From the NCBI GenBank assembly GCA_020725385.1, contig DYFC01000034.1:88007-152006 (forward strand): a DNA stretch of 64,000 nt. The letters are read 5' to 3'. The DNA comes from Nitrospira japonica. Its GTDB lineage: Bacteria; Nitrospirota; Thermodesulfovibrionia; Thermodesulfovibrionales; SM23-35. The translations under genes and the position numbers were made by a program. Below the pieces are notes generated by a model. It had not been told where the DNA came from. It saw only the letters and a program-made list of their open reading frames with translations, and did not search any database. This document shows, one piece after another, positions 4,492 through 51,718 of the stretch; within the stretch, counting starts at the first letter, position 1, and each line of letters opens with the position of its first letter.

Positions 4492-6852
4492 ATGGATAAA
4501 AAACGGGTAAGGATTTTTGTTAAAGGCATAGTGCAGGGAGTAGGTTTCAGACCATTTGTGTATAATCTTGCAGAATTACTGGGACTTAAAGGTTATGTGA
4601 TAAATTCTTCAAAAGGCGTAACAATTGAAATAGAAGGAGATAAAATTGATTCTTTTATTCATAAATTAAAAAATGAAGCCCCTCCTTTATCTCAAATCCT
4701 GAGTGTAGAAATTATTGAACTGCCATATCATGGTTATAAAGATTTTAGAATTCAAGAAAGCAAAGATGAAGGTAGTTTTACTTTAATTTCTCCAGATGTC
4801 TCAATTTGTAATGACTGCTTTAATGAAATGCTTGATAGGAATGATAGGCGTTATTTATATCCTTTCATTAACTGCACAAATTGCGGTCCGAGATACACAA
4901 TCACAAAATGTGTTCCTTACGATAGACCTAATACTACCATGGCTGTCTTTAAAATGTGCAAGGATTGTTTTAGAGAATATGATGATCCCCGTAACAGGCG
5001 TTTCCATGCACAACCAAACGCATGTCCCGTATGTGGACCACAGGTTGAACTTTTTTATAAAGGGGAAAAATTAAAGGATAAAAGACAAAATCCAATAAAA
5101 CAAGCCATTGAAATTTTAAAAAAAGGAGAAATAGTAGCTGTCAAAGGTCTCGGAGGTTTTCACATTGCCTGTGATGCTTTAAATAAAGATGCTGTTGAAA
5201 GACTAAGAAGAGAGAAGAGAAAAAATAATAAACCATTTGCTTTGATGTCCCCTGATATTGAAACAATAGAAAAATATTGCTATGTATCTGAAGATGAAGA
5301 AAAAATCCTGAAATCAAATAAAAGACCAATTGTTTTATTAAGAAAGAAGAAGAATAATTTGCCGGAGGCAATAGCTCCTGACAATCCTTCTATTGGTTTC
5401 ATGCTTCCTTATACTCCCTTACATTATCTTTTATTCTATTATCCTCTTGAAAAAGAAAGTTGCAAAGGAAAACCGAGTCCAAATTTTGAAGCCTTAGTTA
5501 TGACAAGCGGAAACATTTCAGAAGAACCAATTGTCACTGATAACAAAGAGGCTAGAAAGAAATTATCTGGAATAGCTGATGCATTTCTTGTCCACAACAG
5601 GGATATTTTTATGAGAGTTGACGATTCTGTGATACGAATTATAGATAAAAAACCGTTGAAAAAATTAAAAGAACGCAACGGTATGGAATCTATAATTTAT
5701 TTTATAAGACGTTCGCGTGGTTTTGTACCTGATCCTGTTCAACTTCATGAAGAAGGGCCTGAGGTACTTGGCTGCGGTGCTGACATGAAAAATATTTTTA
5801 CCTTAACAAAGGGCAGCTTTGCTATACCATCCCAGCATATAGGTGATATGGAGAATTATGAGACACTACAATTTTTTGAGGAAAGCCTGAATAATCTTAA
5901 ATCTGTATATAGAGTTAAGCCTGTGGCTCTTGCGTATGACCTGCATCCAATGTACCTGTCAACACAATGGGCATTGAGGCAAAAAAATATAAAAAAGACA
6001 CCTATTCAACATCATTATGCCCATGTTGCTTCTATAATGGCTGAAAAAGGTATTAAAGACAAAATAATCGGAGTTTCATTTGATGGAACAGGATATGGAA
6101 CAGACGGCAATCTATGGGGTGGGGAATTTCTTATCGCTGATATAAAAGGCTTCGAGAGGGCAGGGCATTTAAAGTATATACCACTACCCGGAGGAGAAAA
6201 AGCTGTAAAAGAACCATGGAGAATAGCACTAAGTTATATCCATTCTTGTTTTAAGAATAAAACTTTATCCACCCTGCAATCTATAGGATTCACAAATAAA
6301 TACGGGATAGATAATATTAATAGTATCCTGTCTATTATTAACAATACACAGTTTTCTCCTTTATCATCTGGAGCCGGCAGGTTATTTGATGCAGTATCAG
6401 CATTGATAGGAATATGTGATAAAAATACTTTTGAAGGTGAAGCAGCAATTGCTCTTGAAGCAGCGGTCAGCAATAATATTAAAGGTAATTATCCGGTGAA
6501 TTTAATATTTAACAATTGCTATGAAATTGATTTTTCCCCAACATTTTTAAATATTGTTAATGATTTGAATAAAAAGACAGATAAAGGTATTATATCTGCT
6601 AAGTTTCATAATACTGTTGTTAAGGTTATAGTTGAGATTGTTTTAAAACTTTCTGAAAAATATTCAATAAAGGATGTAGCCTTATGCGGCGGGGTATTTC
6701 AGAACATGTATTTGCTTTATAAAACAATTGAAGGACTATCTATAAAAAATTTAAACATTCATATACATGATAAGGTGCCAACAAATGATGCAGGTATATC
6801 GCTTGGCCAGGCTTATATTATACGGGAAAGAATTAAAATAGGAATTGAATAA
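4492..6852 (+). CDS. hypF: Carbamoyltransferase HypF
   Basis: GIVQGVGFRPF acylphosphatase domain, zinc fingers (CTNCGPR, CPVCGP), QHHYAH, DGTGYG; likely ATG at 4492. Confidence 0.96.
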   Translation: MDKKRVRIFVKGIVQGVGFRPFVYNLAELLGLKGYVINSSKGVTIEIEGDKIDSFIHKLKNEAPPLSQILSVEIIELPYHGYKDFRIQESKDEGSFTLISPDVSICNDCFNEMLDRNDRRYLYPFINCTNCGPRYTITKCVPYDRPNTTMAVFKMCKDCFREYDDPRNRRFHAQPNACPVCGPQVELFYKGEKLKDKRQNPIKQAIEILKKGEIVAVKGLGGFHIACDALNKDAVERLRREKRKNNKPFALMSPDIETIEKYCYVSEDEEKILKSNKRPIVLLRKKKNNLPEAIAPDNPSIGFMLPYTPLHYLLFYYPLEKESCKGKPSPNFEALVMTSGNISEEPIVTDNKEARKKLSGIADAFLVHNRDIFMRVDDSVIRIIDKKPLKKLKERNGMESIIYFIRRSRGFVPDPVQLHEEGPEVLGCGADMKNIFTLTKGSFAIPSQHIGDMENYETLQFFEESLNNLKSVYRVKPVALAYDLHPMYLSTQWALRQKNIKKTPIQHHYAHVASIMAEKGIKDKIIGVSFDGTGYGTDGNLWGGEFLIADIKGFERAGHLKYIPLPGGEKAVKEPWRIALSYIHSCFKNKTLSTLQSIGFTNKYGIDNINSILSIINNTQFSPLSSGAGRLFDAVSALIGICDKNTFEGEAAIALEAAVSNNIKGNYPVNLIFNNCYEIDFSPTFLNIVNDLNKKTDKGIISAKFHNTVVKVIVEIVLKLSEKYSIKDVALCGGVFQNMYLLYKTIEGLSIKNLNIHIHDKVPTNDAGISLGQAYIIRERIKIGIE

Positions 6853-13078: not shown

Positions 13079-14077
13079 ATGGAAAGAATATTATTAGGAC
13101 ATGGAAGCGGTGGAAAGCTTATGTATCAATTGATTAGAGAACATTTTGTTCCTGAGTTTAAGCTCAAGTCTTTGAATGATTCGGCGGTTCTTAAAGGGTT
13201 AAATAAAGGTAAGATTGCTGTTACAACCGATTCTTATGTGGTTTCCCCTATTTTTTTCCCGGGTGGCAATATTGGTGAGCTTGCTGTTTACGGGACAGTA
13301 AATGATCTTTCAATGGTAGGTGCAACACCTCTTTATATTACGTCGGGATTTATACTTGAAGAAGGGTTTCCACTCGAAGATTTAAAGAAAATTTTAACCT
13401 CTATGTCGGAAGCAGCAAAAAAAGCAGGTATAAAAATAGTTGCAGGTGATACTAAAGTTGTAAATAAAGGAAAAGCAGATGGTATCTTTATTAACACATC
13501 AGGCGTTGGAATTGTCGGGGAAAATACGGACATTTCACCATTAAAAGTAAAGCCCGGGGATAGAGTAATCCTAAGCGGTCCAATCGGTAATCATGGTATC
13601 TCGATTATTGCAGAAAGAAATGGTTTAAGGTTTAATCCTCCTGTATTGAGTGATACGGCTCCTTTGAATGTACTTGTTAAGGAAATGTTGAAACACACAA
13701 AGAAAATACACGCAATGCGTGACCCTACCCGCGGAGGACTTGCAACCACTCTCAAAGAAATAGCGAATGATTCAAAATGTTGCATTACTATTTTTGAAGA
13801 ATCAATACCCGTGCCTTCTGGTGTCAGAGGAGCGTGTGAACTTCTCGGACTCGATCCGCTTTATGTGGCTAATGAAGGCATTTTAATTGCAATAGTATCT
13901 GCGGATGTAGCCGATTCACTCGTAAAAAAAATGAGGAAAATATCTGTTGCGCGCGAATCGTGTATAATTGGTGAAGTTACAAAAAATCCTGCAGGTATGG
14001 TACTTCTTAAAACATCTATTGGTGGAACAAGAATGATCGAGATGCTTTCCGGTGACCAATTACCAAGAATATGTTAG
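13079..14077 (+). CDS. hypE: Hydrogenase maturation protein HypE
   Basis: HGSGG, TTDSYVV, GDTKVV, DPTRGG, C-terminal LPRIC. Confidence 0.97.
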   Translation: MERILLGHGSGGKLMYQLIREHFVPEFKLKSLNDSAVLKGLNKGKIAVTTDSYVVSPIFFPGGNIGELAVYGTVNDLSMVGATPLYITSGFILEEGFPLEDLKKILTSMSEAAKKAGIKIVAGDTKVVNKGKADGIFINTSGVGIVGENTDISPLKVKPGDRVILSGPIGNHGISIIAERNGLRFNPPVLSDTAPLNVLVKEMLKHTKKIHAMRDPTRGGLATTLKEIANDSKCCITIFEESIPVPSGVRGACELLGLDPLYVANEGILIAIVSADVADSLVKKMRKISVARESCIIGEVTKNPAGMVLLKTSIGGTRMIEMLSGDQLPRIC

Positions 14078-17806: not shown

Positions 17807-19906
17807 TTAAAAAGTTCTTGATGCTTTAAGATTAAAACGTCTTGTTTCACTTATAGCATATCCTTCATCCAGTTTTGTTGAAGTCAACTCAAGTGAGAAA
17901 AACATCTGTCTCCATGTGTAATACAAATCAAATTCATAATCTCTTGTTCTTGTATCTGTATAGAATTCTCTATTTGTTGTAAGAATGCCGGTATTCCACC
18001 ATCCTTTGCTCCTGAATTCCTCTCTCCACCATGCTGTAAAATTAAGTCCTCTGAAGAAAGTATAATTAAACCTTCCTTCATAATTGTATTTTCTTATATC
18101 CTGTGAATTGGTCTGACCTGTTGTGTAACTTCCGCTTAATATTATTGAGCCTCTTTTTAAGATTGGATATCTAAAATGGCATGATGCAGTATAGTGTCTT
18201 ATTTTCTTTGCATTCTGGCTTTCACCCAGCCATACAGATTCAAAGGAATTTAATTTATTGCCCGAGGAATCCATAAAACGGGCTTCTAATTCAACAGACC
18301 ATGAAGCTTTCCAGGGGCCTCTTACATGGGAGCCTAACCGGGCTTTATGTTCAACTGTGGAAGAATTATCTCCTAAGTCGGATTCGGTTTCATAAGGGGA
18401 ATTGAAAGAATATTTAAAAGTCCTGTAACTGAATCTATAGCCGGCAAATATCTTGCCCCATTTATATTTTCTTGTTGACAGGTTTAAATCCAGACTATTT
18501 TCCATGAAACTTAAATCATTGCTATTTTTTTCCTGAGAAAGAATAAAGTTATACAACGCATTAAAGTCATATATTTTGTAAGGTTTGCCGTAGTTGAAGG
18601 TAGTGTCAAGTTTATATGCGTAACGATCATCATCATTAACTGTTCCATATTGAATGCGCATATTAGCTCTCGCAAATATTCTGTTGGAAATTCTATAACG
18701 CCAGATGCCCGCAAGGGTATATCTGTCCGAAGTTTGCTCACCGGATTTTGAAGATGTAAATTCAAAATTATAATCATGGTAGATATTTTTTAATGGCTGG
18801 GGTTTATAATCAGCAGAAAAACTAATAAGTCTGGATGTATCGATTTTATAATATTGAAATGCAGTCCATAGAGAATTGCCTTTATTAAACTGGGTTTTTG
18901 TATTTAAGGTTATTCTGGTTGAACTGAAATCTCTATTGGGATATGAATATTTGGATAATGAATAAACGAGAAAATATTTTGTTTTGATTGCATTCCAGTT
19001 GCCGCTTAAGGTGGTGTCCAGTTTATCAATACTGAATTTATATTCAACTTTTTCTTTTATAATGTCGAAACCTCCCAGAAATTCATCATAGGCTCTCTTA
19101 CCGGTCATCCTATCGGTTGAATAGTCCCAGTGTGAATATTCTATGCGAATATTAGGAAATTTTTTTAAGGTTGAATAGAATCTGGCGCCGTAAAAATTTG
19201 ATACAGAATCCCCGTCAAAGACTGTAACACCATCCATTTTGTTGTATGAACGTGTAGCAAAAACATCAAGCGAGACAGGCCTTGTTGGCAGAAATGTAGT
19301 TGATAATGTGTATGAAATATCCCTTGCATTCCAGGTCGAATCATCGGCTGCTTTATATTTAGTTTTACTGTTGTTAAATGTGATTTCGGCAAAATAGTTA
19401 AGTAGTTTTGGGTGGTAAATGAAACCATTTGCTCTTAGTCTGAATTTTTGCTCGAATGTTTGTGAAGAAGATTTGAATTTATTCCCCATATATTTAGTTT
19501 CGGTATTATAATCTTTATAGTTAAGCTCGATCAGTCCGCTAAAACGTAAAGAGTATCTTGCCTTAACCGGGCTACCGTATAATTGGGTATATGAAAGAGC
19601 CCCTGCAGTTGAAGCGCTTTCACCACCGGATTTAGACATGGATTTTGACATTGATTTGGACATGGATGACATGGATGACATTGATGACATGGACGACATG
19701 GATGACATGGATGACATGGATGACATTGATGACATAGCTAATGAAAATTCAGATGAGGTCAAGACAAATATAAAACATAGAGAAAAAGAGAGAAGAATGA
19801 AACGAAAGAATCTACTTAATAAAAAATTTGATATTAGATGCCATAAAGTGATGCAAATCAATAAAATGGAAAAATAGACTGGCTTTTTGAGTTCTATTAT
19901 TGTCAT
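17807..19906 (-). CDS. Outer-membrane beta-barrel protein (porin-like) with N-terminal Met/Ser repeat
   Basis: Hydrophobic N-terminal leader, alternating aromatic/polar strands, C-terminal Phe (KASRTF); lies within the cytochrome operon. Confidence 0.75.
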   Translation of the reverse strand: MTIIELKKPVYFSILLICITLWHLISNFLLSRFFRFILLSFSLCFIFVLTSSEFSLAMSSMSSMSSMSSMSSMSSMSSMSSMSKSMSKSMSKSGGESASTAGALSYTQLYGSPVKARYSLRFSGLIELNYKDYNTETKYMGNKFKSSSQTFEQKFRLRANGFIYHPKLLNYFAEITFNNSKTKYKAADDSTWNARDISYTLSTTFLPTRPVSLDVFATRSYNKMDGVTVFDGDSVSNFYGARFYSTLKKFPNIRIEYSHWDYSTDRMTGKRAYDEFLGGFDIIKEKVEYKFSIDKLDTTLSGNWNAIKTKYFLVYSLSKYSYPNRDFSSTRITLNTKTQFNKGNSLWTAFQYYKIDTSRLISFSADYKPQPLKNIYHDYNFEFTSSKSGEQTSDRYTLAGIWRYRISNRIFARANMRIQYGTVNDDDRYAYKLDTTFNYGKPYKIYDFNALYNFILSQEKNSNDLSFMENSLDLNLSTRKYKWGKIFAGYRFSYRTFKYSFNSPYETESDLGDNSSTVEHKARLGSHVRGPWKASWSVELEARFMDSSGNKLNSFESVWLGESQNAKKIRHYTASCHFRYPILKRGSIILSGSYTTGQTNSQDIRKYNYEGRFNYTFFRGLNFTAWWREEFRSKGWWNTGILTTNREFYTDTRTRDYEFDLYYTWRQMFFSLELTSTKLDEGYAISETRRFNLKASRTF
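19628..19735 (-). repeat. Coding tandem repeat: 8 x 9-nt (MSS) plus 3 x 12-nt (MSKS)
   Basis: (gatgacatg)n on the + strand; 11 Met codons. Confidence 0.95.
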
Positions 19907-46413: not shown

Positions 46414-46466
46414 AATCCCATCCTCCTTAATATTAATTTAGACCCTTCAATGAAGGGAATATATTA

Positions 46467-47609
46467 TCAGGCTACTTTCTTGCTTTTCTTCTTTGCTGCT
46501 TCAGCTAAAACAAACTTCGTATTAAAAGTACCTTCTATAGCATGCACAGGACATTTTGCTGTGCATATACCGCAACCTATACACTTATTACCGTCTATTT
46601 TATGAAGTTTCTTGAGTTCTCCAAATGGAGCATTGACGGGACATACTTTAGCACAAATTCCACAGCCAATGCAACGGTCATTTATAAATGCTTTTGGTCT
46701 TTCAGGTATATAGTCGGAGATCGCACCGGTAGGACATTTTGTTACGCATATACCACATACTTTACATTTTTCAGGAATTATTCTTGAGAGATTATTTTCT
46801 ATAATTGGAGCTTCAAATGGACATACTCTCACACATATGCCGCAAGCTATGCATCCTGTTTGACAATTCTTTTTTGTCTCAACACCTTTATCTTTCGAGT
46901 TGCAGGACACGAGTACCTGTTTTGAAGAAGGTAGAACTTTTATTACTTTTCTTGGACACGCAGCTTCACATTTCCTGCACCCAGTGCATTTAATTATATC
47001 GACAAAAGGTAGATGATCTTCTGTCATTGTTATTGCGCCAAAAGGACATACTTTTGAACATGTTCCATATCCAAGACATCCGTAAATACAGGATTTATCT
47101 CCTCCTGCTGTTAACATCGCTGCTCTACAATCCTGAACGCCTTCATATTTAAATCTCTTAGATGATACACTCCATCCACCTTTACACATAATACGCGCAA
47201 ATTCAGGCTCTTTTAAAGTAACTTTTTTCCCTGTGATTGCTGCTACTGCTTCTGCAGTTGAAGCTCCACCCGGAGTACATAGATTAGGTGGTATCTCAGC
47301 TTTTTTTACTACAGCTTCGGCATATTGTTCGCAACCTGCGAACCCGCAAGCGCCTCAATGGGCATGGGCAAGAACGTCAAGAACTGCCTGTACACGGGGG
47401 TCAACCTCAACAGAAAACTTTTTAGCTGCAAAGGCAAGACCGAGTCCAAAAATTATACTGATTCCTGCAAGAAATATAAGTGTATATTTAATTAACGGGA
47501 CGATTTCAACGTATTCTTTTGCTTCTACTCCACCACCAACTCCGACATGAGGGATAATAAAATTTAGCCCTGATATAATTAGATTTATGAAGTCAATTAA
47601 TTCTGTCAT
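46467..47609 (-). CDS. rnfB: Rnf complex subunit B, probable selenoprotein (in-frame UGA at 47357-47355)
   Basis: ORFs 47355-47615 and 46467-47189 share a frame; reads AH-U-GACGFAGC; multiple CxxCxxCxxxCP motifs; SD AGGGAG before ATG 47609. Confidence 0.9.
47327..47357 (-). promoter_or_regulatory. Putative bacterial SECIS element
   Basis: UGA, 11 nt, then GUUCGCA-GGU-UGCGAAC hairpin. Confidence 0.78.
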
Positions 47610-47618
47610 TAACACTCC

Positions 47619-48212
47619 CTATATCTTTATTAATCCTGAAAAACCGGCAAAAGCCAGGGCTATAAGTCCTGTTACTATAAAAGCTATAGGTGTTCCTCTA
47701 AAAGGTTTTGGCACATCGGCAAGTTCGAGTCTTTCTCTTATGCTTGCCATAATTATTAATGCAAGAGCAAACCCTATTCCCGAACCAAATGCAAAAGAAA
47801 TGCTTTCAATAAAACTATAATGTTCTCCGGCATTAATCAGAGGCACTGCAAGAATTATACAATTGGTTGATATAAGAGCCAAGTAAATACCAAGTTTATG
47901 ATAAAGGACAGGTGATATTTTTCTCATAATTGTGTCTGAAGCCTGAACAAAACCCGCAACAATTCCAATGAATATAATAATCTTTAAGAAAGTAATATCC
48001 CATGGTACAAGGACATAATTAAATATAAGCCAGCTAAGTCCTGAACTAATCATCATAACAGATGTAAATGTGATGCTCATTCCAACAGCAGTTTCCATTC
48101 TTCTTGAAACGCCGAAAAATATACATAATCCAAGAAATCTTGTAAAAACAAAGTTATTTATCAAAGAAGCAGAAATAATTAGCTCAAAAACTTTTGTAAA
48201 CTCAGAACTCAT
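47619..48212 (-). CDS. rnfA: Rnf complex subunit A
   Basis: NNFVFTRFLGLC, LISTNC, IRERL. Confidence 0.92.
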   Translation of the reverse strand: MSSEFTKVFELIISASLINNFVFTRFLGLCIFFGVSRRMETAVGMSITFTSVMMISSGLSWLIFNYVLVPWDITFLKIIIFIGIVAGFVQASDTIMRKISPVLYHKLGIYLALISTNCIILAVPLINAGEHYSFIESISFAFGSGIGFALALIIMASIRERLELADVPKPFRGTPIAFIVTGLIALAFAGFSGLIKI

Positions 48213-48230: not shown

Positions 48231-48845
48231 TTAACTACTTTTCTTTTCATATTTTCCATAAATCCAGTTAAACATTCCCATTAAAATTCCAACAGCAATG
48301 AACCCTCCTGCAGGTAGTATGAAGATTAGCAATGGTTTTGCATTTATAATCTCATATCCCCAAAGAGAACCTTTGCCAAGCAATTCTCTGAAGAAGCTTA
48401 TAAGGCTAAGAGCAAATAAAAAACCGAGTCCCATTCCTATTCCATCAAACATAGAAGGAATAAAACGATTTTTACTCGCAAACATTTCAGCACGTGCGAG
48501 AATGGAAGCAAATGCGACTATTAATTGAATATAAAGCCCCATCTGTTTATATGCATCCGGTGCAAAAGCTGCCATTGACATATCTGTTACTGTAACCCAG
48601 CCGGATATTACAAGCATGAATATCGGAAGCCTTATTCTTGGATGTATAAAATGTCTCATGATGGAAATTGTAATATTAACCATTACCTGTACAAAAAGAA
48701 CCGCCGAGCCCATTAAAACACCGTTTCTTAGATTATTCGTAACAGCTATAGAAGGGCATAAACTCAAGGCAAGCTTGAAGATAGTGTTTTCCTTGAAAAT
48801 TCCATTTTTAATGACTTCGTAATAATTAATTTTTTTCTGTAACAT
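48231..48845 (-). CDS. rnfE: Rnf complex subunit E
   Basis: LSLCPSIAVT, IRLP, DGIGMGLGF, RELLG. Confidence 0.9.
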   Translation of the reverse strand: MLQKKINYYEVIKNGIFKENTIFKLALSLCPSIAVTNNLRNGVLMGSAVLFVQVMVNITISIMRHFIHPRIRLPIFMLVISGWVTVTDMSMAAFAPDAYKQMGLYIQLIVAFASILARAEMFASKNRFIPSMFDGIGMGLGFLFALSLISFFRELLGKGSLWGYEIINAKPLLIFILPAGGFIAVGILMGMFNWIYGKYEKKSS

Positions 48846-49416
48846 CTGATTTCTCTTTTTTCTGTATTGTATTAATTAAAAAAGAAACAGCATTTTTAAC
48901 AGCATCTTCTGTGACTGCTCTGCTTGATATTGTCGCTCCAGAGATAGCCTGCACATATTCTTTTGTATCAGTTTTCAATACTTTTAGATGCTCTAAATAT
49001 TTTTCTTTAAATTGATTGATAAAATAATCTTTTTCTATTTCGTCCCCGAGACCTGGTGTTTCAGCATGACCAAGAATGCTGATCTTTTTAACTTTAAAAT
49101 CATTATCCACTGAAATCAGAGTATTAATATAACTCGAATAACCTTTGCCAAAAGATTGAATCAAATAGCCAATAACTTTATTTTCTTTCATCGCCACATA
49201 ATATTCAGCATGTTTATCATGTATTTTCCAGTCGCCAAGTTTATCAATCTTATCAGCCTCTGGCATAAGTTTTTTTAGAGCTTGCTCTTTTTCTATTATT
49301 GAGTTTCTATACATTATCGGAGATGTCTTTGCATAAACAAATGCAAGAATAGAGCCTCCTATAAGATAAATAACAACGAGATTTAGAGTAATTTTAATAA
49401 TATCTTTGGCATTCAT
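48826..49416 (-). CDS. rnfG: Rnf complex subunit G
   Basis: HAETPGLG, SGAT FMN-attachment motif. Confidence 0.92.
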   Translation of the reverse strand: MNAKDIIKITLNLVVIYLIGGSILAFVYAKTSPIMYRNSIIEKEQALKKLMPEADKIDKLGDWKIHDKHAEYYVAMKENKVIGYLIQSFGKGYSSYINTLISVDNDFKVKKISILGHAETPGLGDEIEKDYFINQFKEKYLEHLKVLKTDTKEYVQAISGATISSRAVTEDAVKNAVSFLINTIQKKEKSDVTEKN

Positions 49417-50408
49417 TTTTTCTTTACTGCTCCGAAAATCTTACTTTTAAACCCCCTATCAATCAATGGTGAAAAACAATTCATTATGAGTATCGCGAAC
49501 ATTACCCCTTCAGGATAACCACCTTTTAAGCGTATAAGCATTGTTAGAAAACCACAACCTGTGCCAAACAATATTTGACCACTCTTCATTGAAGGACTTG
49601 TCACGTAATCAGTTGCCATGAAGAAGGCTCCAAGTATCATGCCTCCGCTAAGAACATGAAGCAATGGATCTCCTGAAAATAATCCGCTATTTCCTCCGAA
49701 TATCCATGCTATTAAAGCAGATGTGCCGATAAATGAAATGGGAATGTGCCATGTTATATATTTACGATAAAAAAGAAAAGCTGCTCCAAGTAAAAGTGCC
49801 AATCCTGAAGTTTCACCTATACATCCTGCACGATTTCCGAGCATTAGATGTGTATATAGGTTTGCTTTGTCACCAAATATCTCAATTAGTTTTGAATAAC
49901 CTTCTTCTTTCAGTATCCCGAGAGGGGTGGCGGTTGTAAGAGCGTCAAACTTGATAAAAGATGCAGAAGGTTCTGTCCATACAGTCATGAGTTTTGGAAA
50001 AGATACAAGGAGAAAAGCCCTGCCAATCAATGCTGGATTGAAAATATTATAACCAAGTCCGCCAAAGAGTTGCTTTGTAATTATAATCGCAAAAAATGAA
50101 CCTGCAATAGGTATATAGAAAGGTACGGATGCAGGAAGGTTCATCCCTAACAAAAGACCTGTAAGAAAAGCGCTGCCATCATTTATGGTTATATCTTTTT
50201 TCAGTGTCTTCTGATAAAGAAACTCAAAAACAACCGATGAAACAATACACAATGAAAGTACAAATATAGCATGTGGACCAAAATAATATGCTCCCATAAT
50301 TATAGCAGGCAGTAAGGATACAGACACACTCCACATTATGCGGGGTGTTGATTCTTCACTTCTTATATGAGGGCTGACAGAAATTATAAATGTTTTTTCT
50401 TTGTTCAT
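49413..50408 (-). CDS. rnfD: Rnf complex subunit D
   Basis: SPHI, FGGLG.NIFNPA, TTATPL, FMATDYVTSP. Confidence 0.94.
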   Translation of the reverse strand: MNKEKTFIISVSPHIRSEESTPRIMWSVSVSLLPAIIMGAYYFGPHAIFVLSLCIVSSVVFEFLYQKTLKKDITINDGSAFLTGLLLGMNLPASVPFYIPIAGSFFAIIITKQLFGGLGYNIFNPALIGRAFLLVSFPKLMTVWTEPSASFIKFDALTTATPLGILKEEGYSKLIEIFGDKANLYTHLMLGNRAGCIGETSGLALLLGAAFLFYRKYITWHIPISFIGTSALIAWIFGGNSGLFSGDPLLHVLSGGMILGAFFMATDYVTSPSMKSGQILFGTGCGFLTMLIRLKGGYPEGVMFAILIMNCFSPLIDRGFKSKIFGAVKKK

Positions 50409-50410
50409 GC

Positions 50411-51718
50411 TTATGGTTTAACCTGTGTTTTTGCAAGTCTAATTAAATGTACAATCGGCCTTTTTGAAGGACATACATATGTGCAGCATCCACATTCAAA
50501 ACAATCGAAAAGATTATATTCCTTTGCTCCTTCAAAAAAGCCCCTTTCACTGTAAACACTCAACATAGATGGCATTAATCCCATAGGGCATGCCTCAATG
50601 CATCTTCCGCATCTAATACATGGCCCAAATTTTTCTGTATGCACAATTTCATTTTCGGTAAGAACAGTAATGCCTGAAGTGCCTTTTGTTACAGGCATAT
50701 CGAGTAAAGCTATAGCAAATCCCATCATCGGTCCGCCTGAAATAATTTTTACAGCACTTTCTTTTAGACCGCCACATTCTTCAATAAGATGGGATACGGG
50801 TGTCCCAATTTTTACTAAAAGATTTTTTGGTTCTCTGATGCCTTCACCGGATACAGTAACTACTCTATCAATTAAAGGTTTACCGAACCGGACTGCTTCA
50901 TATATAGCATTGGCGGTACCGGCATTGTGCACAACAACTTTAACATCCATGGGAAGTGCTCTTGGAGGCACTTCTCTTCCTGTAATTGCTTTAATTAACA
51001 TTTTTTCAGCACCCTGTGGATACCGTGTATGCAAAGAGCAGATTTTTATACTATCTGAATCAGAGACAACTTTTTTTAAAGACTCAATAGCTAAAGGCTT
51101 ATTGTCTTCAACGCCAATAAACCCATTGCTTACACCCAATACTTTCATTATTATTTTTAAACCTTCGATAATTTCTGATGGACGCTCAAGCATTAGTCTA
51201 TAATCACTAGTAAGATATGGTTCACATTCAGCGCCATTAATAATGACAGTATCAATAGGTTTTTCTTTTGGCGGAGAAAGTTTAACTATAGCAGGAAATG
51301 TAGCGCCGCCCATTCCAACTATTCCTGCATTTTTAATCTTCTCTTTCATTTCATCAGGACTAAGTTTCATATAATCAGGATTATCTTTTAATAATGTCCA
51401 TTCATCTTTAAAATCATTTTCAATAACCACAGAAGTAACCATTCTTCCCATTACATTTGGAACTTCGATAATTAATATGACTTTCCCCGAGACAGAAGAA
51501 TGCACAGGAGCAGAAACAAATCCTGTTGGTTCACCAATTAATTCGCCTTTTTTAATTTCCTGATTTATTGTGACAACAGGTTTACAGGGTGCTCCAATAT
51601 GCTGGCTCAATGGAATTACAACTTTTTGAGGCTGAGCTATTTCAGTTATTTTTTTATCTGCTGAAAGTTCTTTTTTATCAGCAGGGTGAATACCTCCTTT
51701 AAAGACTGAAAATCCCAC
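50411..51718 (-). CDS. rnfC: Rnf complex subunit C
   Basis: FKGGIHP, GMGGATFP, NGAECEPY, two 4Fe-4S motifs. Confidence 0.95.
   Translation of the reverse strand: MGFSVFKGGIHPADKKELSADKKITEIAQPQKVVIPLSQHIGAPCKPVVTINQEIKKGELIGEPTGFVSAPVHSSVSGKVILIIEVPNVMGRMVTSVVIENDFKDEWTLLKDNPDYMKLSPDEMKEKIKNAGIVGMGGATFPAIVKLSPPKEKPIDTVIINGAECEPYLTSDYRLMLERPSEIIEGLKIIMKVLGVSNGFIGVEDNKPLAIESLKKVVSDSDSIKICSLHTRYPQGAEKMLIKAITGREVPPRALPMDVKVVVHNAGTANAIYEAVRFGKPLIDRVVTVSGEGIREPKNLLVKIGTPVSHLIEECGGLKESAVKIISGGPMMGFAIALLDMPVTKGTSGITVLTENEIVHTEKFGPCIRCGRCIEACPMGLMPSMLSVYSERGFFEGAKEYNLFDCFECGCCTYVCPSKRPIVHLIRLAKTQVKP

Follow-up and report, generated by a model that had tools for sequence, protein, structure and literature searches.

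The rnfB gene of a complete rnf operon in the Nitrospira japonica assembly GCA_020725385.1 probably encodes a selenoprotein. Codon 85 of this gene is an in-frame UGA at an iron–sulfur ligand position. It is predicted, with a probability of about 0.85, to be decoded as selenocysteine (Sec), with a downstream hairpin acting as the SECIS element and the whole reading frame forming one gene of 380 codons; the same confidence is attached to Sec as the residue inserted at codon 85. This rnfB is a new member, from Thermodesulfovibrionales, of an already catalogued selenoprotein family, and it is mis-annotated; it is not a discovery. The operon lies in a stretch of 64,000 nucleotides of contig DYFC01000034.1 (positions 88,007 to 152,006 of the forward strand), which is called the window below and to which the plain coordinates refer.

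The rnf genes are all on the minus strand of the window, in the order rnfC-D-G-E-A followed by rnfB:

50411..51718, minus strand: rnfC (TIGR01945, 571 bits)
49413..50408, minus strand: rnfD (TIGR01946, 358 bits)
48826..49416, minus strand: rnfG (TIGR01947 / NF041840, below cut-off; assigned from its operon position)
48231..48845, minus strand: rnfE (NF009070, 211 bits)
47619..48212, minus strand: rnfA (TIGR01943, E 1.6e-67)
46467..47609, minus strand: rnfB, 380 codons when UGA85 is read as selenocysteine (NF005503, TIGR01944, 9eri_B, 7zc6_B)
47355..47357, minus strand: codon 85 (UGA), where selenocysteine is predicted as the first ligand of the motif U85-x2-C88-x4-C93-x17-C111
47271..47366, minus strand: Fe-S domain (Pfam PF04060, residues 82-113), which is the FdI domain with cluster RnfB-1
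46467..47189, minus strand: C-terminal open reading frame of 240 codons, the polyferredoxin part, a gene-caller product that replaces the whole rnfB

When TGA is read as U, rnfB is a single frame from the ATG at 47609 to the terminal TGA at 46469..46467, and codon 85 is its sole internal stop. The context of this codon is CAT GCC CAT TGA GGC GCT TGC GGG TTC GCA GGT TGC GAA, and the codon aligns with a cysteine in the RnfB of A. woodii (9eri_B) and of C. tetanomorphum (7zc6_B). Against NF005503 (RnfABCDGE type electron transport complex subunit B) the read-through protein scores 289 bits for a cut-off of 252, and against TIGR01944 143.9 bits for a cut-off of 68.7; it also matches the structure chains 9eri_B (E 5e-81) and 7zc6_B (E 9e-68). 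It has five Fer4 (ferredoxin) stretches besides PF04060. The preliminary description of this DNA, which placed a TGA at the first cysteine of the RnfB motif in a frame open to 46467, has the coordinates and the codon context right. There is no in-frame TGA in rnfC, rnfA or rnfE of the window. The terminal TGA of rnfB is followed by an in-frame TAA (window 46464-46469, minus strand), and in a cell that decodes Sec this tandem stop might protect the terminal UGA from being read through.

In the mechanism proposed here, the hairpin in the coding sequence (a 6-bp stem with a loop NGGNU, 11 nt past the UGA) would be a bacterial SECIS. From what is established of the mechanism in bacteria, SelB carrying Sec-tRNA(Sec) would bind this hairpin and bring Sec to the ribosome. 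The Sec would stand in for the first of the four cysteine ligands of the [4Fe-4S] cluster in the small, mobile FdI domain. Through this cluster, electrons would travel from the polyferredoxin body to the iron centre that lies between RnfA and RnfE.

Homologues of this RnfB exist as Cys/UGA pairs, a comparison that the preliminary description had put forward as a check. An rnfB orthologue is found in 35 of the 41 nearest genomes, and codon 85 is TGA in eight of these 35 (this genome included) and TGC or TGT in the others. Nine rows of that set are flagged as having one TGA, and eight of them have it at codon 85; the ninth, G020, was considered as a second Sec site and rejected, as its TGA terminates either the upstream rnfA or rnfB. 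The pooled set, which includes 66 named loci, has 91 loci with the motif, 80 of them unique, and at codon 85 these 80 unique genome loci have TGA in 13 cases, TGC in 49 and TGT in 18, that is, 67 Cys codons. The rnfB loci missed by the search pattern are four Cys forms, and one locus is partial. In all, TGA is present at codon 85 in 13 unique Thermodesulfovibrionales (Nitrospirota) genomes and in 43 more unique metagenome sequences. When metagenomes were scanned with a pattern that contains the TGA, 81 stretches matched; of the 80 retrieved, the frame is open on both sides of the TGA in 75 and not in five, and one open match (L148) is not RnfB-like.

In the rnfB tree (75 rows, after five short rows, L098, L105, L106, L110 and L111, were dropped), the Sec forms make up two clades within one starred group. 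At least three changes between Sec and Cys are needed, two of which are forced by starred branches. The Cys-type relatives G002 and G003, which belong to the same genus, keep selA and selD; thus, the choice between Cys and Sec in RnfB is not a mere loss of the Sec trait. The Cys-type rnfB of G018 (L027/L095) is nested among Sec types and retains the hairpin (GUUUGC-AGGUU-GCGAAC, with one G-U pair); it looks like a recent replacement of Sec by Cys. The selD of G018 is matched partially, over model positions 125-309, in an open frame of 223 aa.

The hairpin lies just downstream of the UGA:

47327..47343, minus strand: SECIS-like hairpin GUUCGCA-GGU-UGCGAAC, after an 11-nt spacer (47354..47344) that follows the UGA
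47314..47351, minus strand: possible lower helices around the hairpin, predicted (alignment columns 7-8/43-44 and 11-13/36-38)

Both the sequence of this perfect hairpin and its spacing of 11 nt had been read correctly in the preliminary description. The conserved stem pairs GUUCGC (47343..47338) with GCGAAC (47332..47327) around a loop AGGUU, and an additional A-U pair in this copy of rnfB gives a 7-bp stem with a GGU loop. A perfect stem of at least 6 bp with a GG/GU loop at the same distance is present for 268 of the 96,774 TGA triplets of the genome (0.28%), and one of at least 7 bp for 78 of 96,774 (0.08%). The folding energy of the 71-nt stretch is unremarkable compared with shuffled sequences (z = -0.76), and the peptide F-A-G-C-E dictates five of the six stem pairs by the genetic code, if G-U is allowed. 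The case for the hairpin therefore rests on comparative data, and these are strong. RNAalifold predicts the same helix independently, and the pairs of the lower helices show no variation on both sides. An Rfam scan of 47150-47450 with E values up to 10 returned no bacterial SECIS family and a chance match to 'sar' (13.7 bits).

Because the peptide forces five of the six pairs, the positions that remain free are fair tests of the hairpin. The outer pair, at 47343 and 47327, joins the wobble base of Gly89 and the first base of codon 95. Among the 54 unique Sec sequences it is G-C in 38, A-U in 7, C-G in 6, U-G in 1 and unpaired in 2, compared with a standard pair in 19 of 65 unique Cys sequences; these sequences are related to each other and the counts overstate their independence. 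All six stem pairs are kept in 49 of the 54 unique Sec sequences vs 7 of the 65 Cys sequences. The pattern used to collect the metagenome part of the Sec set prescribes some of the stem but leaves the outer pair and the Glu codon free. When the comparison is limited to the identical peptide FAGCE, an all-Watson-Crick 6-bp stem is found in 46 of 51 Sec forms and in none of 11 Cys forms. Residue 90 is Phe in all 54 Sec forms, whereas 41 of 65 Cys forms have Tyr there, by which one pair is broken. In the Sec alignment, 98.5% of the 324 cells are paired and the covariation score is reached by none of 500 shuffles, with compensatory change at one pair alone and two pairs invariant. Judged from these alignments, the UGA of rnfB is accompanied by a hairpin under selection.

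The genome also has most of the machinery that Sec insertion requires. It contains selA (536 bits), two selB genes, both of full length and scoring 384 and 358 bits for a cut-off of 242, and one tRNA-Sec gene (selC). One selB adjoins a yedF/desulfurase cluster, and the other is about 11 kb from selA. Each of two fdhA-type genes contains one in-frame TGA, the surrounding residues being (Y/I)-U-H-S; both are classical selenoprotein genes, and table-11 calling will split them too. The corresponding loci, in this genome (G000) and in the sister genome G005, are:

G000 C15:21101-22957 and C52:14715-16565: the two selB genes
G000 C27:32861-34909 and C27:13869-14627: formate-dehydrogenase-alpha-type genes
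G000 C15:~18316-19054 (L209:6316-7054) and G005 L213:~4819-5568: empty selD slot
window 13079-14077, plus strand: hypE (TIGR02124, 448 bits), of the AIR-synthase family, the source of the weak SelD-like match in the window

The preliminary description made its reading depend on whether the genome has selA, selB, selC and selD; the first three are in the genome and selD, which is required for the synthesis of selenophosphate, was not found. Neither the TIGR00476 and NF002098 profiles nor tblastn with the SelD of relatives detected selD in this assembly, which is 96.6% complete, so that its absence from the organism itself is not proven. The best TIGR00476 match of the genome (69 bits, for a cut-off of 125) is ThiL; a SelD hidden among the weak SelD-like matches was considered and rejected, as these are HypE, ThiL and PurM. 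Similarly, no selD was found in G005, which is 98% complete. The gene is present in nine of the 11 family genomes checked, with an in-frame TGA within selD in eight, and is missing in these two genomes only.

The surroundings of the missing gene are informative. In G002, G006 and G023 a cluster comprises selD at its head, an 85-aa open reading frame, yedF, a cysteine desulfurase gene and selB. In G000 and G005 the cluster is intact on long contigs, and the slot of selD is a spacer of about 740 bp with 14-18% G+C, in which no selD remnant was detected by tblastn (E up to 100) or by blastn against the selD loci of relatives. The absence of selD at the selB-cluster locus is thus real and not an assembly gap, since the cluster sits on long contigs and its slot holds no remnant. 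The second selD locus, seen in G001 and G004, has no synteny in G000. Between G000 and G005, selB, yedF and the desulfurase gene are under purifying selection (dN/dS 0.09-0.11, with 0.095 for selB). Two explanations remain: either both MAGs have selD in the few percent that was not assembled, or the lineage has another selenium donor. A speculative and improbable version of the latter is that G000 and G005 have a working UGA-Sec system, have lost selD, have no other SelD homologue and obtain activated selenium through an undescribed route, perhaps with the YedF-like protein and the cysteine desulfurase/selenocysteine-lyase-like enzyme still encoded next to selB. A lead to something new could come from the missing selD alone.

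The same gap leaves room for the alternative that survives best, in which the UGA is translated in the selD-less G000 and G005, but not as Sec: Cys or Ser would enter through tRNA-Sec, or a near-cognate tRNA would give Cys or Trp by read-through. The absence of selD from both assemblies and from the syntenic slot speaks for it, and the dN/dS values given below show translation and not which residue enters. On the contrary, selA, both selB genes and tRNA-Sec are intact, with selB at a dN/dS of 0.095, the SECIS is kept exactly as in the selD-bearing relatives, and the fdhA genes retain their UGA too; moreover, the few percent of each MAG that is unassembled could contain selD. SelB discriminates against Ser-tRNA(Sec). 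Insertion of a residue other than Sec is therefore considered unlikely, and Sec is the preferred residue. Since selD is missing, the confidence in Sec is nevertheless lower than the confidence that the codon is translated at all.

Translation past the UGA is indicated by the comparison with the sister species G005 (RnfB identity 88%), at a dS of about 0.8. For this pair, dN/dS is 0.05 over codons 1-84 of rnfB, 0.029 (at a dS of 0.85) over the 55 codons that separate the UGA from the following ATG (47189), and 0.11 over the rest of the gene. The 55 codons after the UGA, where the other three cluster ligands lie, are thus the most constrained part of rnfB. On these grounds codon 85 is almost certainly translated. 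TGA is an ordinary stop in this genome, where it ends 219 of 1056 long frames; a change of the genetic code, with TGA recoded as sense genome-wide, was rejected because TGA terminates 21% of long frames.

These values also bear on the possibility that the UGA is a true stop. In that case rnfB would be a split or decaying gene, with a membrane stub of 84 aa and, from a restart at the ATG at 47189, a polyferredoxin of 240 aa. Table-11 calling yields exactly those pieces and the public collection has the 240-aa piece. Against this, the 55 codons that would be left untranslated carry the other three ligands and are the most constrained ones (dN/dS 0.029), all 54 unique sequences have the TGA at one and the same codon and are open on both sides of it, and no second stop or frameshift occurs in any Sec-form rnfB. 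A true stop is accordingly very improbable. A sequencing or assembly error that turned TGC or TGT into TGA, which is an a priori possibility in a MAG and nothing further, has next to no chance of being correct, as Logan contigs from two other samples (X2 and X3, of the probable source study) cover the TGA of codon 85 with 0 differences and the same TGA recurs in 12 further genomes as well as in 43 unique sequences from metagenomes. The authenticity of the TGA, on which the preliminary description depended, is thereby upheld. The Logan contigs of two further runs (X4 and X5) end at codon 85. Overall, the Cys/Sec pairs, the dN/dS values and the hairpin comparison support the proposal made there that rnfB has a Sec-coding UGA at an Fe-S ligand cysteine together with a SECIS hairpin.

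The position of the predicted Sec in the complex can be discussed on the basis of the Rnf structure from C. tetanomorphum, of which the features relevant to RnfB are taken up here (PMC9588780). In that complex the CxxCx..C motif belongs to the small and highly mobile FdI domain, with cluster RnfB-1, and the FdI cluster is modelled and not resolved. The proposed docking site of ferredoxin is RnfB-6, which of the clusters is the most distant from the membrane. Electrons would pass through clusters 6 to 2 and then to RnfB-1, and RnfB-1 swings across to the iron centre that RnfA and RnfE have between them. By analogy, the Sec is located where electrons leave RnfB for the membrane module, and not at the ferredoxin entry. 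The preliminary description had placed the motif at the entry point of ferredoxin into Rnf; this has to be revised, the motif being that of the FdI cluster RnfB-1, the last cluster of RnfB (PMC9588780). By homology, selenium would coordinate iron in the FdI cluster, and the effect of Sec is probably a shift in the potential or the reactivity of this cluster. A selenium ligand on the mobile [4Fe-4S] shuttle would be placed at the point where electrons enter the membrane portion of an ion pump. The sister genomes with Sec- and Cys-type RnfB offer a natural pair for the effect of selenium on a low-potential cluster.

The family is not new, as the preliminary description had suspected when it stated that a Sec-containing RnfB may not be wholly new. 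A UxxC selenoprotein family, PRK07118/NF005503, has rows in two selenoprotein catalogues (PMC9312934, from 2022, and PMC13188914, from 2026), with ABC78902.1 and WP_258165141.1 as examples. The present RnfB has the same NCBIfam model as its top match (NF005503) and the same UxxC motif at the Sec position; this link is made by profile and motif. In the catalogue rows the family has a generic name only, with no RnfB label, no placement in the Rnf complex and no description of a SECIS. Both reviews, in the parts that deal with this family, credit it to the GOS paper (PMC2398784). None of the terms Rnf, Fe-S, PRK07118 and ABC78902 occurs in the main text or in four supplements of the latter, and the attribution may be misplaced. 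RnfB is absent from the 71-row family list in Table S3 of Peng et al. 2016 (PMC5029168). No description of a Sec-containing RnfB under that name was found in the accessible part of the literature on RnfB or Rnf and selenocysteine or selenoproteins. The family is therefore catalogued but essentially undescribed.

The practical consequence of the finding concerns annotation, and no new kind of system is claimed. The table-11 listing of open reading frames cuts rnfB into 47355..47615 (86 aa) and 46467..47189 (240 aa), and the public protein collection has the gene only as a 240-aa C-terminal fragment (P0122, 100% identity) without PF04060; gene callers do split the gene, as had been foreseen. With this stored 'ferredoxin-like' fragment, the membrane anchor and the FdI domain are lost from the annotation. 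Among the 120 best matches there are at least 12 other clusters of 239-280 aa without PF04060. The best full-length public protein is about 75% identical, and Sec-type relatives of 79-88% identity exist at the DNA level. As rnfB is stored as fragments, with related ones in at least a dozen clusters, Rnf looks incomplete in these sulfate-reducer-like Nitrospirota.

The prototype of the bacterial SECIS that is located inside an open reading frame and read by SelB is that of E. coli fdhF. The rnfB hairpin resembles such elements in that it lies inside the coding sequence, about 11 nt past the UGA, and has G and U in its apical loop. Unlike the prototype, it has a short stem (6-7 bp), and its sequence is largely set by the peptide GFAGCE, which leaves little room for covariation. 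The preliminary description likened the rnfB hairpin, by its spacing and a GCAGGU core, to the fdhF element, a putative likeness. In one fdhA of the same genome, the UGA is followed at a distance of about 13 nt by a similar hairpin, whose loop is GGUCU.

The protein itself is similar to the solved RnfB of the Cys type, from A. woodii (9ERI B), C. tetanomorphum (7ZC6 B) and Azotobacter vinelandii (8AHX B), with a membrane anchor, the four-ligand motif of FdI and polyferredoxin modules. The alignment to these chains spans residues 47-360, and the rnfCDGEAB operon is common to both. It differs from them in the residue of interest, since all three solved chains have Cys at the position of the UGA, and its polyferredoxin tail is longer than that of the 274-aa clostridial RnfB. 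The selenoproteins seen in other Rnf-type electron-transfer subunits concern different subunits, and Sec has entered such subunits more than once.
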